Source of the DNA: Octopus vulgaris
Lineage: Eukaryota
Direction: 5' to 3'
Assembly: GCA_951406725.2 (NCBI GenBank)
Contig: OX597823.1
Span: 101,680,001-101,744,000, forward strand
DNA: 64,000 bases
Part shown: positions 12,147-57,127 of the stretch, piece by piece
Position numbering within the stretch: the first letter of the stretch is position 1
Layout of the letters: every line of letters begins with the position of its first letter
Notes under the pieces: model-generated
What the model was told of the DNA's origin: nothing
Seen by the model: the letters and a program-made list of their open reading frames with translations, nothing else
The model's database searches: none
Position numbers and translations under genes: made by a program

Positions 12147-12512
12147 TCAATTCAAGGATATCATGTCCTCATTAGGGATTAAATATTCAAAATATTTCAC
12201 TGGTTAATCTCTATCATATAAGAAGACCATTATAGTAATACATATTGTTAATAATGAAAGAAAGAAAATGGAGAATTATGGGTGTATAAATAATTTATTT
12301 GTATGATATGAGGAGAAAGTTTTTTTAATAAAAACAATGCTAATAAATTGTAAATTATAAAGCTCTAAAGGACATGGCAGATGCCATTTCTTTCAGAGCT
12401 TTATAATTCATAATTTATTTGCATTGTTTTTATAAGACTTGCAACCTTAATATGTCATATAAATAAATTATTTATACACCCATAATTCTCCATTTTCTTT
12501 CTTTCTTTTGTT
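12147..12512. mobile_element. Fold-back element (about 120-bp inverted arms at ~12256-12505 plus a unique ~110-bp tail) in (TA)n
   Basis: GAAAGAAAGAAAATGGAGAATTATGGGTGTATAAATAATTTATTT ... AAATAAATTATTTATACACCCATAATTCTCCATTTTCTTTCTTTC; a second, inverted family member lies at 39598-39971. Confidence 0.85.
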
Positions 12513-12534
12513 TTATATATATATATATATATAT

Positions 12535-12965
12535 ATATTGTTAGATTTCGGAATGGTCATTTTGCTAGTTTAGCCAATAAAAACACACGCACTATATATT
12601 TGGTGTTATTTTGCTTCAGTGTTATCTATTTTTTACATTAATCTTAATTTTATTTCGGCCAGTTCTTTCGTCACACTCCTGTGACCGCATCAGCGTCAGC
12701 TGACGGTTAGTAAGGAGAGACACAAATAAGAAAGAAGAAAACAAAGGACCATTGATGCGGTCACAGGAGTGTGACGAAAGAACTCTGGCCGAAATAAGAT
12801 TAAGATTAATGTAAAAAATAAATAACACCGAAGCAAAATAACACCAAATATATAGTGCGTGTGTTTTTATTGGCTGAACTGGCAAAATGACCATTCCGAA
12901 ATATAACAATATCTGTTTCAACACACGATTTCACATAAAAATTCTTGCACAACAAATATTTAAAC
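12535..12965. mobile_element. Fold-back element with hammerhead-like motif in both arms (Penelope-like derivative), flanked by (TA)n
   Basis: Arms 12535-12692 and 12753-12912 are near-perfect reverse complements around a ~60-nt loop; tail 12913-12965; deleted relative at 42361-42433. Confidence 0.85.
12746..12790 (+). ncRNA. Type-I hammerhead ribozyme-like motif with variant core
   Basis: GGACCA-TTGATGCG-GTCAC(AGGAGT)GTGAC-GAAA-GAAC-TC-TGGCC. The opposite arm reads CTGATGCG. Stems I and II pair, but the core is non-canonical at position 9. Confidence 0.55.
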
Positions 12966-13743
12966 GTACTATATATATATATATACATATATGTACGTAT
13001 ATATGTGCAGACATATATATATATATATATATATATATATATATATATATATATATATATATATATATATATATATATATATATATTATATATATATATA
13101 AATATATATATATATATATATATATATATATATATATATATATATATATATATGCATATATATATATATGCATATATATATACACACACATATGTACATA
13201 CATATGTATATATATAGGCATGCATATATGAGTACTGGACGTCACAAAACGTAAACAACATATATATGTGTGTGTATATATATATACATACATATGCGTA
13301 AGTTTTCTTTATTATTATTATTATCATCATCATCGTTGATGTTGCTATTGTTTGCGAATCGAAATTTTGTTCTTTAAAACCAAAACCCAAAGAAACTTTT
13401 TGTAATATATATAAAAAGAAATTGGACTTAACTAACGTGAAATGGAGTGTTTTGCTAAAGAACACGGCATCGCCCGGTCCAGAGATCGAGACAGCAATAT
13501 TACGATCGTGATTGCAATACTCTAAACACCAAGCCGCCTGCTTCTAGTGTATGTTTGTGTGTGTGTGTGTGTGTGTGTGTGTGTGTGTGTGTGTGTGTGT
13601 GTGTGTGTGTGTGTGTGTTTGCGTGCTTGTGTGTACATGTGTATGTATATATATATATATATATATATATAAATGTGACCGCGTGTGTACCGTTGGCGAT
13701 TTTTTTCCTCCGTCTCCCCTTCCTTTGATCTTTCCTTTTCCTA

Positions 13744-13780
13744 TGTTTCTGACGAAAAGCTCCGCTCGAAACGTTAAATT
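13744..13780 (+). ncRNA. Minimal type-I hammerhead ribozyme motif within a ~210-bp element (13678-13890) flanked by (TA)n
   Basis: TGTTT-CTGACGA-AAAGC(TCC)GCTC-GAAA-CGTT-AAAT; palindromic AACGTT stem III; stems I and II imperfect. Confidence 0.65.
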
Positions 13781-14809
13781 CTCCTTCTTTCTTTCTTTCC
13801 TTTCCTGAGCGTCCAATGATACTATACTTGTTCCGCGTCCTCGCGTTGTTGTGTTTTCCCTTTGTATTTTCATGTCTGGATTAACTATATTTAACTATAT
13901 ATATGTGTGTGTGTGTGTGTGTGTATTTGCGTGTGCTTATGTATGTATGTCTTTTTCTGTATTCAAGCATGATGTATTCAAGTATGTTGCAATGGAAGTG
14001 AGCCTGCTTCACTCACGTTTTCCTGGTTTATGTTTTACCATGTGCACTATTCTTCCTAATGTCTCTATCAACACCACCACCACCACCACTACTATCTCCA
14101 CTACCATTACTATCATCCCCACTAGCCAACAACACTCGCCCCTCCACGCAATCAATTCATTACTATCACCACTACAACCACTGTTACCACCACAGCTACT
14201 GTAACTAACTCTACTGCTGCTGCTGTGGCTATTACTACTACTACTACTACTACTACTACTACTACTACTACTATTACTACTACTGCTGCTGCTACTACTA
14301 CTACTATTACTACTACTGCTGCTACTACTACTACTACTACTACTACTACTACTACTACTACTAATACTAATACTACTACTACTATTACTACTGTTCGTAT
14401 ATTGCTTATAATCAATGAGGAAATCAAAGTAGCATGCACGCTATCTCCAGAGCTGTGGGTTAAATGTATGGGGATGGAGTGGCATGGTAATTATGGTGGT
14501 GATGCTGGTGAAGCAACCGTATTAATAATGCCGACAATTATTGAGTTAACGCTAATTTTAAATTTTCGTGTTTAAACTTACATCATTTAATAGGATAGAA
14601 AAATCGTTATTTTTTTTTTCTTTAATTATATATTACTCTTAATACATAGATTAAATCGTAATTAAATACACGGAAACAATTAATATTTAATCATCACTAT
14701 GCTCTTCTCTCTCTTCCTCTGTCTGTCTCACACGTGTACATGTACGTGTGTGTGTGTCTGTGTGTATGTATGTATATGTATGCAATATTTGATTATAGTA
14801 TTTGATTAT

Positions 14810-15220
14810 TATTACTTTATTGCCCACAAGGGGTTAATAGATGGGACAAATAAGGACAGATAAATGGATCAAGTCGAATACATCGACCCCTCAGCGTAAC
14901 TGGTACTTAATTTATCGACCCCGAAAGGATGAAAGGCAAAGTCGACCTCGGCGGAATTTGAACTCAGAACATAAAGATGGACAAAATACCTATTTTTTTA
15001 CTACCCACAAGGGGCTAAACACAGGGGACAAACAAGGACAGACAAACGGATTAAGTCGATAATATCGACCCCAGTGCGTAACTGGTACTTATTTAATCGA
15101 CCCCGAAAGGATGAAAGGCAAAGTCGACCTCGGCGGAATTTGAACTCAGAACGTAGCGGAAGACGAAATACCGCTAAGCATTTCGCCCGGCGTGCTAACG
15201 ACTCTGCCAGCTCGCCGCCC
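14810..15220 (-). mobile_element. SINE family B dimer (full unit plus partial unit, both with LINE-like tail) with target-site duplication
   Basis: Two CGACCCCGAAAGGATGAAAGGCAAAGTCGACCTCGGCGGAATTTGAACTCAGAAC blocks; flanked by the direct repeat TATTTGATTATAGTATTTGATTAT (14786-14809 and 15221-15244). Confidence 0.88.
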
Positions 15221-55111: not shown

Positions 55112-55119
55112 TGACGTCA
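55112..55119. promoter_or_regulatory. Palindromic CRE (TGACGTCA)
   Basis: Exact motif, with TTACGTCA (55028) and GTGACGT (55136) nearby; function unproven. Confidence 0.35.
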
Positions 55120-55917
55120 TGTAGATAAAATACAGGTGACGTTGAGAGGAGAAGCTTGATATCAGATAGATATAAGAGTGCAAAGAAAAACACGATTAGA
55201 TCATGTGTGTGTATACACACATATATATATACTCATATATAGGTGTCTGCATATACATACACATACACACATGCGGTGTGTATTTATAGATGGTCTCTAC
55301 AGAGACGACGGTCCACTCCTCCTAAGAAGCTATTGCTCACAAAAAACCCCGATAAATTTAGGAAAGAACTACATCACATCTTTAAGAACTTAAGCTTCTT
55401 CACTATGGCAGGAACGCATCTAAAATCATCGACGACCTCAACGCTACCCTCGACTTAGCATCTATTATTTATTAATCCTACAAGTAAGGCAACAGCAAAA
55501 TCGAATATATACACAGGCAATCCAACCATCCCAAGACCATTTACATACACACGTATATATATATATATATATATATATATATATGTATATATATATATAT
55601 ATATATGTATGTATATATATATATAGAGAGAGAGAGAAAGAGAGAGAGCGAGAGAGAGAGAGAGATACATACATACATACCTACATACATGTGCGTATGT
55701 GTGTGTGCAATGTGCAGTATGCATATTTATGCAGACATGTAAAATAAGTTATTATGCAGTGAAATTATTATTACATGATGAAGGCTAAGAAACAGCCGTA
55801 ATTCTATGGATATTAAGTGGTTGTGAGTGTGAGAAAGATAGAAAGACCGTTTGACTAAATCTCCAGAAGTGAAATCCGAAGTCACAGTCGACCCCTATAT
55901 GTCTACATTTGACTCTA

Positions 55918-56390
55918 CAGTTATCAATCACCATATCGCGGTTCACCTATCGCGCCCTCAGTATATCGCGGATTTTTCTGTCTAATATATGTAAATTTAT
56001 ATCGCGGGTTTCTGCAGCCGATAAGTATTTATATTTTTTTAGATTTTATTTCTGTGTTAAAATAAGCATTTTTGCGAATAAAAATTAATAAATTAATAAA
56101 TAAAAATACAGTACAGTTCCGCACTGTTTAACACATTAATTAAAATATATTAAAAGAAAATACGTAGGGTGCCGTAGATGAGTAAACAAAGAATCCCGCA
56201 TACTGTATGAAAAACGAAACTCGGGAGGCGAGTGTGTGGTGTTGTTTTGCATTTATAATAAAATAAATATATACAAATTATAAAAACAACAATAAAGAAT
56301 GTACAGTACATTACTGTTTCTATTTCGCGGATTTTCTCCTATCACGGGAGGTTTTGGAACGTAACTCCCGCGATAGTCAAAGGATTATTG
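55918..56390. mobile_element. pogo/Tigger-type MITE
   Basis: TA|CAGTTATCAATCACCATATCGCGG ... CCGCGATAGTCAAAGGATTATTG|TA, with repeated subterminal TATCGCGG motifs. Confidence 0.72.
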
Positions 56391-56435
56391 TATTAAGGAA
56401 ATGCTCTTGCTATTTCACTCAACAATCTTAATATT

Positions 56436-56648
56436 GATTTCAAATGTTGGCACAAATCTAAAACTTTCGGGAGAGCGGGTAAGCCCCATTGACCCCAGTG
56501 CTAAACTGCTACTTATTTTATCGAACCCGACAGAGGGAAAAGCAAAATCGACTTCGGCGGAATTTGAACGCAGAACGTAAAGACAGACGAAATTCCGCTA
56601 AGTATTTATCCCGGTGTGCTAACGACTCTTTCCTGCTCGCCGCCTTAA
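56436..56648 (-). mobile_element. SINE family B with 12-bp TSD
   Basis: TSD AATCTTAATATT at 56424-56435 and 56649-56660. Confidence 0.85.
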
Positions 56649-56895
56649 AATCTTAATATTAATAAATATACATGTGTGTGTGTGTGTGTGTGTGTGTGTG
56701 TGTGTGTGTGTGTGTGTGTGTGTGTGTGTGTGTGTGTGTGTGTGTGTGTGTGTGTGTGTGTGTGTGTGTGTGTGTGTGTAAACGTAGCACAGCTTCAATC
56801 AGAAATACTGCAAATAAATATATTATAAAGTTTTTACTGTGATAATACACAATGTAAGAATGTATTGTAAACACATCATTTCCGTGTATTTGAAG

Positions 56896-57127
56896 TGCAG
56901 GAGAAAGCGCAGTAAGTCTCCCGGCCTACAGTTTCATGATTTGGTGATCAACCCCCAGAGAAGACATACACACTTTCTTTCTCCAGTTGATGCCATAGCG
57001 TGTTTAATTTTATATGTTATTTCGACATTTTAACGACTGCAGAAGTAGATTGGGTACGTCATCTCTGAAAAGCGATCACCAAGTTGTGAAACTGTCAGTC
57101 AGGAGACTCTCTCGCCAGTTTTCTGCA
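56896..57127. mobile_element. Old fold-back element with degenerate hammerhead (57061-57104, +)
   Basis: Arms 56896-56969 and 57055-57127; ATCT-CTGAAAA-GCGAT(CACCA)AGTTGT-GAAA-CTGTCAG-TC-AGGA. Confidence 0.65.

Follow-up and report, generated by a model that had tools for sequence, protein, structure and literature searches.

Two fixed 3′ ends combine one of each in fold-back units of octopus Penelope-like elements

Introduction

A 64-kb stretch of the Octopus vulgaris genome (hereafter the window) contains a series of short, sequence-unrelated elements that fold back on themselves, sit mostly in (TA)n and carry hammerhead-like motifs. What are these units, and how do their inverted arms arise? 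In Penelope-like elements (PLEs) of the Hydra clade, an inverted copy with a one-sided tail, hammerheads in the pLTR and (TA)n targeting have been published, and the formation of the inverted ends and tail was named an open question (Craig et al. 2021, PMC8557442). Because element type, hammerheads and targeting are already in print, the gain offered here is incremental and its mechanistic value modest. Insertion ends yield a countable rule, one tail end and one internal end per inversion, and for annotation the hairpins belong with PLE 3′ ends rather than with MITEs, miRNA precursors or retrozymes.

Fold-back and solo units in the window

By self-complementarity search of the 64-kb window, we found paired arms at 12253–12379/12382–12508 (88–95% complementary), 12535–12692/12753–12912 (95–100%), 31438–31488/31497–31547 (92%), 31582–31714/31815–31947 (95%) and 44685–44760/44780–44854 (90–92%). 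The initial annotation had proposed fold-backs flanked by (TA)n, with the microsatellite as target, and both points hold: the arms are 88–100% complementary, and (TA)n lies 3′ of the element in 28, 26, 28 and 28 of 30 genomic copies in four families (26–28 of 30 in Hydra families B, C and D), against a background of 7.5–7.8% of 20-nt windows. The fold-back at 56896, described there as older, was overlooked by the ungapped arm search and recovered with gapped self-alignment, where 232 of 384 positions match; it is decayed. The units fall into nine families, A to H and J, consistent with the diversity noted earlier.

Family A, a Neptune-like PLE 3′ end, lies at 12535–12969 on the plus strand. 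Its inverted arm (12535–12693) ends at an internal site 57 nt from the tail end (−57), its main arm (12699–12969) carries the 57-nt tail, and its variant hammerhead (12749–12788) is mutated in both arms. Just upstream, at 12147–12510, is a family J fold-back with its tail-bearing arm on the minus strand and an inverted arm that stops about 103 nt before the tail end; both arms end 3′ of the hammerhead, whose form in longer relatives is canonical. A second family J fold-back (39599–39970, plus strand) was absent from the initial annotation, as were a minus-strand family C tail fragment adjoining (TA)n (26964–27070) and a family A mini-insertion in (TA)n at 42359–42436. In this last, a tail-end arm (about −45 to −11, minus) meets an internal-site arm (−96 to −57, plus) head to head; the arms do not overlap, hence there is no hairpin. 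A solo Neptune PLE 3′ end of family F, about 220 bp long, sits within (TA)n at 13672–13890 (plus), with a minimal hammerhead at 13745–13779 that has AACGTT and mutations in stem II.

The remaining units include five families of Hydra PLE 3′ ends. The family B fold-back (31582–32095, plus) joins an inverted arm ending at −148 (31582–31714) to a main arm (31713–32095) with a 148-nt tail. The elements at 31337 and 44620 have their tails on the left and are minus-strand elements. The former, family C at 31338–31549, has its tail-bearing arm on the minus strand, an inverted arm (31487–31547) ending at −95, and a junction within the hammerhead, of which GAAA-CGATCG-TA alone survives. The latter, family D at 44620–44854, also has its tail-bearing arm on the minus strand; its inverted arm (44780–44854) ends at −63, and its hammerhead core is CCGACGA (U4C) at 44782. 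TTAGGG repeats are present at its junction. Beside it at 44856–45072 is a solo, tail-less family G copy on the minus strand, whose hammerhead has CGCGCG and a mutated core. Family E occurs twice. A tail-bearing copy (40012–40360, plus) has a very short inverted stretch at the 5′ end and a degenerate hammerhead (40067–40122), and a second insertion (40507–40862) has a tail-less minus-strand arm ending at −140, joined to a tail-end arm of about 25 nt (40839–40862), and a hammerhead (40594–40649) with an intact core and a mutated helix III. What had been read as an inverted pair at 40010/40430 is two separate insertions, tail to tail. The decayed fold-back belongs to family H (56790–57200), which has few detectable relatives; its arms are about 60% complementary and its hammerhead (57063–57105) is degenerate.

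In 600 kb of unselected DNA there were 25 units of eight families, which by extrapolation would correspond to roughly 10^5 short PLE insertions genome-wide.

Relation to coding elements

Seven of the nine families extend 5′, in longer genomic copies, into a PLE ORF on the same strand (RT and/or GIY-YIG): five of the Hydra clade (B, C, D, E, G) and two Neptune-like (A, F). The PLE link and flank extension suggested in the initial annotation were thus borne out, with both RT and GIY-YIG found in A and B, and copies of C, D, E, F and G reaching the EN part or thumb plus EN only. In long A and B copies both RT and EN are present, interrupted by stops; no intact full-length ORF or full-length copy was recovered among the copies examined, nor was an ORF link for families H and J. 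In the search for a partial tandem placing a direct pLTR before a full ORF, one tandem-like arrangement (copy L317) turned up, and no full-length copy.

Clade assignment relied on motifs. Family B has an RT with DKT, in the only Hydra family whose copies span that region (copy L121), as well as a GIY-YIG at the C-terminus with CxxC-E..N-CxH. Families C, D and E (copies L191, L159 and L317) share this type of C-terminus and carry a CxCx5C linker, which was not seen in family B copies; for family G the C-terminus alone was recovered, without the linker region. The CxxC/CxH motifs around the conserved E and N, without CCHH, are found in all five of these families and are partly decayed in C and G. 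Family A has an RT, CX4CxxC and a CCHH-type GIY-YIG, and family F a thumb, CX4CxxC and GIY-YIG; both match the Neptune linker (CX2-5CxxC) and CCHH in the C-terminal GIY-YIG. Pfam RVT_1 matched family A weakly (E 7.7e-5, below cut-off) and had no match in family B. Family A and its homologues have a long insert between RT3 and RT4, about 70 extra residues relative to family B; because this departs from canonical PLEs, and with the clade of family A judged solely from motifs, we call it Neptune-like only. The 3′ UTR is long in some families, at about 1.3 kb in D and 2.2 kb in C, where opposite-strand coding in two copies gave 0 Pfam families in six frames.

Copies of the ORF-linked families show variable 5′ truncation and are dispersed, not in tandem. 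By their sequence, the fold-back units of several families are best described as 5′-truncated 3′ ends of coding PLEs, and we propose that most genomic copies are dead on arrival. The non-autonomous, retrozyme-like population envisaged earlier gives way to coding elements represented by dispersed, truncated copies.

Two fixed 3′ ends per family

In each of the six mapped families (A, B, C, D, E and G) there are two fixed 3′ ends, 57–148 nt apart, and the internal one lies at −57 (A), −148 (B), −95 (C), −63 (D), −140 (E) and about −141 (G). In every one of these families the internal site terminates in ATAT/TATA-like bases. The locus set comprised 264 loci (270 minus 6 duplicates), mostly top-scoring matches and not a random sample; 112 had an inverted arm and 152 did not. 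Among the armed loci, 78 combined a tail end with an internal end, one had two tail ends, one had two internal ends, and 32 had an end at neither site, so that 78 of 80 classifiable inverted pairs were mixed. The same held for queries without a tail requirement (25 of 26 classifiable pairs; p = 4e-7 against 50%) and in unselected DNA (8 of 8 classifiable pairs, with 4 unclassifiable, from a small set of 12 pairs). Two fixed 3′ ends per family, and their one-of-each combination in inverted pairs, are what this genome contributes.

The two arms varied in their 5′ reach. Of 71 mixed pairs, 23 had a tail arm that extended further, 27 an internal arm that did so, and 21 arms of equal extent; the longer arm could be of either type within families A–E. 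In five mixed pairs of family E, the tail arm ends before the internal site and the arms do not overlap. In 46 of 61 pairs, an arm resembled its partner more than it did other copies. Judged from rough BLAST ends, overlap at the junction was present in 36 of 70 cases; for families C and D the junctions gather close to local palindromes, and junction positions are similar in six family C copies. (TA)n flanks both outer ends of inverted pairs and adjoins the internal site in 49 of 61 arms and, for ends in unselected DNA, in 15 of 24.

Of the armless copies, 49 end at the tail site, 28 at the internal site and 22 elsewhere, which indicates that both sites can start a copy. None of the 99 had a hidden arm of at least 12 nt; priming from two sites is therefore not obligatory, and an obligate form was ruled out. 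We also dropped the idea of a tail-primed copy blocked at the internal site, as family E has no pile-up of ends at −140.

Hammerhead motifs

We applied a type-I hammerhead descriptor to 30 or 60 copies per family, with shuffled controls. It matched copies of families B, C, D, E, F, G and J, with 9–21 matching copies per family in six families and none in the controls. All seven helix-III palindromes listed in the initial annotation were recovered between GAAA and TH in family copies, and stems I–III pair across families despite their unrelated sequences. Stems II reach about 110 nt. Cores with U4C occur in family D and part of family E, and C9 in family A. For the family of the 12535 element the fold-back stood and the motif is a variant: the descriptor matched 0 of 30 family A copies, with the non-canonical core CTGATGCG in 27 of 30 and no perfect palindrome.

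The type-I motifs reported earlier are thus present in family copies, and within the window they reduce to a single complete canonical example, at 31816–31898 on the plus strand in the family B fold-back (motif at 31821+, against 0 matches in 30 dinucleotide shuffles). It has a 5-bp stem I, CTGATGA, a long stem II and the palindromic helix III CATATG, with a predicted cut after 31893; other motifs in the window are mutated or cut off. Modelling predicts that it is buried, or locked, inside the long hairpin. With one intact motif, so enclosed, cleavage of read-through RNA by the window copies, as suggested in the initial annotation, is unlikely, while long dsRNA from the fold-backs is plausible. 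For 31700–32095 the only matches on record are contigs presumed to be RNA; four of the 24 runs gave coverage without usable starts, ends or strand, which weighs neither for nor against expression. The Rfam check recommended in the initial annotation returned no hammerhead among 150 of 395 matches listed for the window, nor for 31580–32100 searched alone, probably because long stems II and a short helix III fall outside the model.

The hammerhead sits 42–127 nt upstream of the internal site. In a count biased by queries that spanned the site, 3 of 328 5′ or inner ends were 3 nt or less from the predicted cut, whereas 309 extended past it. Cleaved RNA as template was rejected, since the ends show no pile-up there.

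Origin of the inverted arms

We consider it probable that the units are 5′-truncated 3′ ends of coding PLEs in (TA)n, and that fold-backs form when reverse transcription is primed by both nicked target strands, one at the tail end and one at the fixed internal TA-like site of the element RNA. The GIY-YIG domain, we infer, would nick both (TA)n strands; as (TA)n is self-complementary, each would present the same ...TATA-3′OH primer. On an uncleaved RNA, one primer would pair at the tail end, with UA-like bases, and the second at the internal ATAT/TATA motif. Each cDNA would stop independently, and head-to-head joining would follow, in many cases at microhomology or short palindromes. Lying upstream of the internal site, the hammerhead would simply be carried along. 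There is precedent in the lizard PLE PAc: in vitro, both strands are nicked and extended, and on uncleaved RNA there are two start sites, which bound the tail (PMC11167929). Against such twin priming, later deletions in palindromes may reshape inner ends and mimic independent truncation, 32 of the 112 armed loci have an end at neither site, and the PAc starts, with neither target homology nor a strand difference, depart from the TA pairing and one-of-each pattern proposed here.

The same PLE origin would also accommodate snap-back self-priming of one template or cDNA at a palindrome, with later deletions making the arms irregular. This was proposed for rotifer PLEs from palindromes at inverted junctions (PMC3846280), and it fits the clustering of C and D junctions near palindromes and the 21 of 71 pairs with arms of equal reach; one-of-each ends would be natural if one end were the start and the other the stop. 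However, snap-back expects one arm type always to reach further 5′, whereas both directions occur within families A–E; the non-overlapping pairs (five in family E, and 42359–42436 in the window) have no self-complementarity; and armless copies end at either site. We regard it as unlikely: because either arm can be longer and some pairs do not overlap, the data favour twin priming at two sites, a mechanism we infer from sequence. Terminal inverted repeats of MITE-like DNA transposons targeting (TA)n, which long inverted arms within TA flanks resemble, deserve next to no credence. The tail lies outside the repeats, which are thus not terminal, inner ends vary among copies, 152 of 264 loci are armless, and the linked ORFs encode RT/GIY-YIG, not transposase. 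The initial annotation had allowed for such repeats only as a counter-case to its own reading.

Amplification as short non-autonomous units, retrozyme-like or SINE-like, seems very improbable, yet family F alone behaves like a discrete short unit. All 23 of its unselected copies lie within 217 nt of the 3′ end, 14 start at 196–217, and (TA)n lies just upstream in 20 of 27 short copies. Families H and J without an ORF link, and the similar junctions of six family C copies, point the same way. On the other side, seven of nine families reach a PLE ORF with variable 5′ ends, fold-back junctions vary between copies, and retrozymes are tandem hammerhead repeats whereas these units are dispersed. F copies, short and long, are alike to the same degree (0.913 versus 0.916), and a separate short subfamily was not seen.

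An asymmetric form of twin priming, in which a protein dimer gives the tail-end site one strand and the internal site the other, on two RNAs paired through the helix III palindrome, strikes us as quite improbable. Were it true, dimerisation and packaging of the RNA would be the main reason to retain the hammerhead, and master cores whose catalysis is weakened (U4C in family D and part of E; C9 in family A) would be accounted for. A single RNA with strand displacement would suffice, family A has no perfect palindrome, and Naiads, without canonical hammerheads, form the same inverted and tailed structures.

Comparison with known systems

In L1 twin priming, a second primer starts internally and produces a 5′ inversion; the position of the internal site varies, and there is no overlap between the arms. 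The octopus units, by contrast, have a fixed site, and overlap of most arms gives hairpins. Beyond the papers cited, our literature search, with most subscription papers outside it, turned up no account of twin priming or of a one-tail rule for PLEs.

The closest relatives are Hydra-clade PLEs, C-terminal EN+ elements that include Hydra-1_Obim of Octopus bimaculoides (PMC8557442). They share with our units DKT, the CxCx5C linker, CxxC/CxH around E and N without CCHH, a hammerhead close to the 3′ end, (TA)n as target, truncation at the 5′ end, an adjacent inverted copy and a one-sided tail. Unlike the single octopus entry in that paper's supplement, there are at least five Hydra families here, with tails of 63–148 nt rather than the 30–40 bp described (PMC8557442), long 3′ UTRs in C and D, very long stems II, and U4C cores. 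Families A and F resemble the Neptune clade in having the CX2-5CxxC linker ahead of a CCHH-type GIY-YIG at the C-terminus, and in microsatellite targets; family A differs in its RT3–RT4 insert and its CTGATGCG core.

Minimal PLE hammerheads are type I, with a palindromic helix III and one additional base following position 9; they come in many sequence families within a genome and in opposite-strand pairs 100–700 bp apart (Cervera and de la Pena 2014, PMC4209133). The predicted motifs here share those features, with longer palindromes (6–8 nt) in several families. Non-LTR retrozymes, which are tandem, non-coding hammerhead repeats (bioRxiv 10.64898/2026.07.22.740005), likewise have type-I hammerheads and a PLE relationship, but our units are dispersed truncations of coding elements; among 150 of 154 tandem repeats listed for the window, none was a tandem non-coding hammerhead array. 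Lastly, the Poseidon element PAc of Anolis carolinensis (Frangieh et al. 2024, PMC11167929) has two starts bounding the tail, as our units would have under the proposed reading. Its starts have no target homology and no strand difference between sites, whereas the octopus units abut TA-like bases at both sites and pair them one of each.

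Repeat families and their density

The arms, loops and tails that the initial annotation described for the short units are present as claimed, apart from corrections to some units, and a genome search (2.8 Gb, 227 contigs) traced every short unit to a repeat family. The host is treated as an octopus, since the best protein match to one of the elements bears an Octopus vulgaris label. Preliminary candidate counts, not to be read as copy numbers, came to 1107 for family A (window start 12535), 2272 for B (31585), 1460 for C (31337), 1024 for D (44620), 3085 for E (40430), 1473 for F (13678), 1034 for G (44870), 387 for J (12147) and 9 for H (56896). 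Eight families make up 12 units in the window, with family H in addition, and sixty 10-kb stretches at fixed positions held 25 units per 600 kb. Unit density in the window looks about 4–5 times that of the fixed stretches, but the families were picked from the window itself. Elsewhere in the window lie a U6 snRNA gene or pseudogene (35103–35202, forward strand; scoring 81.8 bits where the gathering cut-off is 44) and another abundant dispersed repeat (14816–15219, 21112–21455, 36280–36545 and 51950–52293, one copy being a 182-bp tandem), which resembles an octopus SINE.

Coding origin of the units

Copies of the families have a constant 3′ end and variable 5′ ends. Extension of the longest copies toward Penelope-like element (PLE) open reading frames (ORFs), a check suggested in the initial annotation, met same-strand coding sequence upstream of the units in seven families; for families H and J an ORF link was looked for and not found. 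What makes the units non-coding is that they comprise only the final 100–500 bases of elements whose 3′ UTRs are long; every ORF recovered was broken or truncated. The 3′ UTR of family C (locus L187, 5700–7500) is AT-rich and about 2.2 kb long, and a Pfam search of it gave zero matches; faint peptide words on its opposite strand are presumably LINE-like.

The 5′ walk came upon a CxCx5C linker in families C, D and E, along with the C-terminus seen in family B, and in family G it arrived at the C-terminus. These are the Hydra-clade marks given by Craig et al. 2021 (PMC8557442); the supplement to that paper also includes a Hydra element of Octopus bimaculoides that targets (TA)n and carries a hammerhead. 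Families A and F have the marks of the Neptune clade, pairing a CX4CxxC linker with a CCHH-type GIY-YIG endonuclease. The family B ORF (L121, L122) contains an in-frame poly-Asn/poly-Ser run between reverse transcriptase (RT) and endonuclease, resembling the Asn-rich inserts of rotifer PLEs in the part available of Arkhipova 2013 (PMC3846280).

Family A (L123, L124) and about 50 homologues (P0001–P0049) are C-terminal-endonuclease PLEs in which about 70 residues are added between RT3 and RT4, an insertion given solely for Naiad/Chlamys and some Coprina in the accessible text of Craig et al. 2021. The family A motifs had 0 matches in that paper's supplement, a file that may be without Neptune references, and family A with its homologues is possibly an under-described PLE lineage. 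The match P0025, whose annotation names a dynein regulatory complex subunit isoform, has 92% identity to the family A RT over 39% of the query, reflecting either an exonised PLE or a gene-model artefact.

The earlier reading of the units as non-autonomous is favoured by family F alone, mostly a ~220-bp unit with (TA)n on both sides, and is opposed by the seven families that lead into coding sequence. No copy among 23 unselected ones of family F was longer than 217 nt, but 3 of 30 selected copies continued further, one of them as far as a Neptune ORF. With short and long copies equally alike, the short units fit a stop favoured at a small hairpin as well as they fit a non-autonomous subfamily. 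Retrozymes are tandem by definition in the part available of bioRxiv 10.64898/2026.07.22.740005.

Hammerhead motifs

Type-I motifs in the family copies share a common fold with unrelated stem sequences. Per locus set, the type-I descriptor matched 21/30 loci in family B, 21/60 in C, 17/60 in D (CCG core), 10/60 in E, 16/30 in F, 9/30 in G, 2/30 in J and 0/30 in A, with zero matches on shuffled controls; two canonical-core matches in the D loci and one CCG match in the J loci take in adjoining copies of other families. Of 50 readable family D copies, 23 have CCGACGA, the master core, with CCA in 15 and CCGAT in 4, both consistent with CpG decay, and a canonical core in 2. The family E core was CCGATGA in 13 of 45 copies, and the family A core CTGATGCG occurred in 27 of 30. 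U4C is a known natural variant of low activity (Perreault 2011, portion available).

The only complete hammerhead in the window, at 31821 within the family B fold-back 31582–32095, is predicted to sit within the long hairpin of its 510-nt unit (predicted fold −225 kcal/mol, z −21.9). Palindromic helix III, many PLE hammerhead families per genome, and pairs on opposite strands 100–700 bp apart were already described in the accessible part of Cervera and de la Pena 2014 (PMC4209133).

Two 3′ ends and the origin of the inverted pairs

The proposed enrichment of (TA)n was borne out, with (TA)n beside 159/181 tail ends against a background of 7.8%. It also adjoined 49/61 internal arm ends, 25/55 internal main ends and 8/24 tail-arm ends, the last figure being low mostly owing to the older families E and G; plain 5′ junctions, for comparison, gave 30/119. 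Set against long natural copies, six families have two 3′ ends each, a tail end and an internal site 57–148 nt upstream that is closed by ATAT/TATA-like bases. An inverted arm was present in 112/264 loci, combining tail with internal end in 78, two tails in 1, two internal ends in 1, and an end at neither site in 32. The first locus sets of families A, B, C and D were chosen for having a tail; sets without tail selection gave 25 mixed pairs among 26 classifiable, and in unselected DNA, made up of the 600 kb in fixed stretches and another 1.04 Mb of flanking sequence retrieved for other families, 8 of 8 were mixed, with 4 further pairs unclassifiable.

We infer that the inverted pairs arise by twin priming at two fixed sites. 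Because (TA)n is its own complement, nicks on both strands would yield the same primer; one primer would pair with the tail end and the other with the internal motif, and the two cDNAs, each stopping independently, would then be joined. A published alternative, set out in the available portion of Arkhipova 2013, is that self-priming makes the inversion. It predicts one fixed longer arm, whereas either arm may reach further 5′ (23 versus 27, equal in 21; n = 71), and it could yield the arms without any overlap seen in five family E pairs, and in the window at 42359–42436, only by invoking later deletions, which may have occurred.

Two TTAGGG telomere-type repeats (44766–44779) mark the place where the arms of the family D fold-back join; they are missing from the family sequence and may have been captured in end joining. 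A diverged piece like the family B tail end (40426–40506, reverse strand) lies between two family E insertions.

The fold-backs are real, and the families are further members of a known element type. In the literature searched, which took in few subscription journals, Craig et al. 2021 was the only paper met with on PLE hammerheads of octopuses, and no count of PLE end combinations was found; the countable rule for these is of modest value. Twin priming agrees with a lizard PLE in vitro, for which the accessible part of the report (PMC11167929) describes extension of both strands, two start sites bounding the tail, and dispensable hammerhead cleavage. The proposed TA pairing and the one-of-each pattern belong to the octopus side only, the latter counting as a difference because the lizard element, in that part of the report, has no strand difference.
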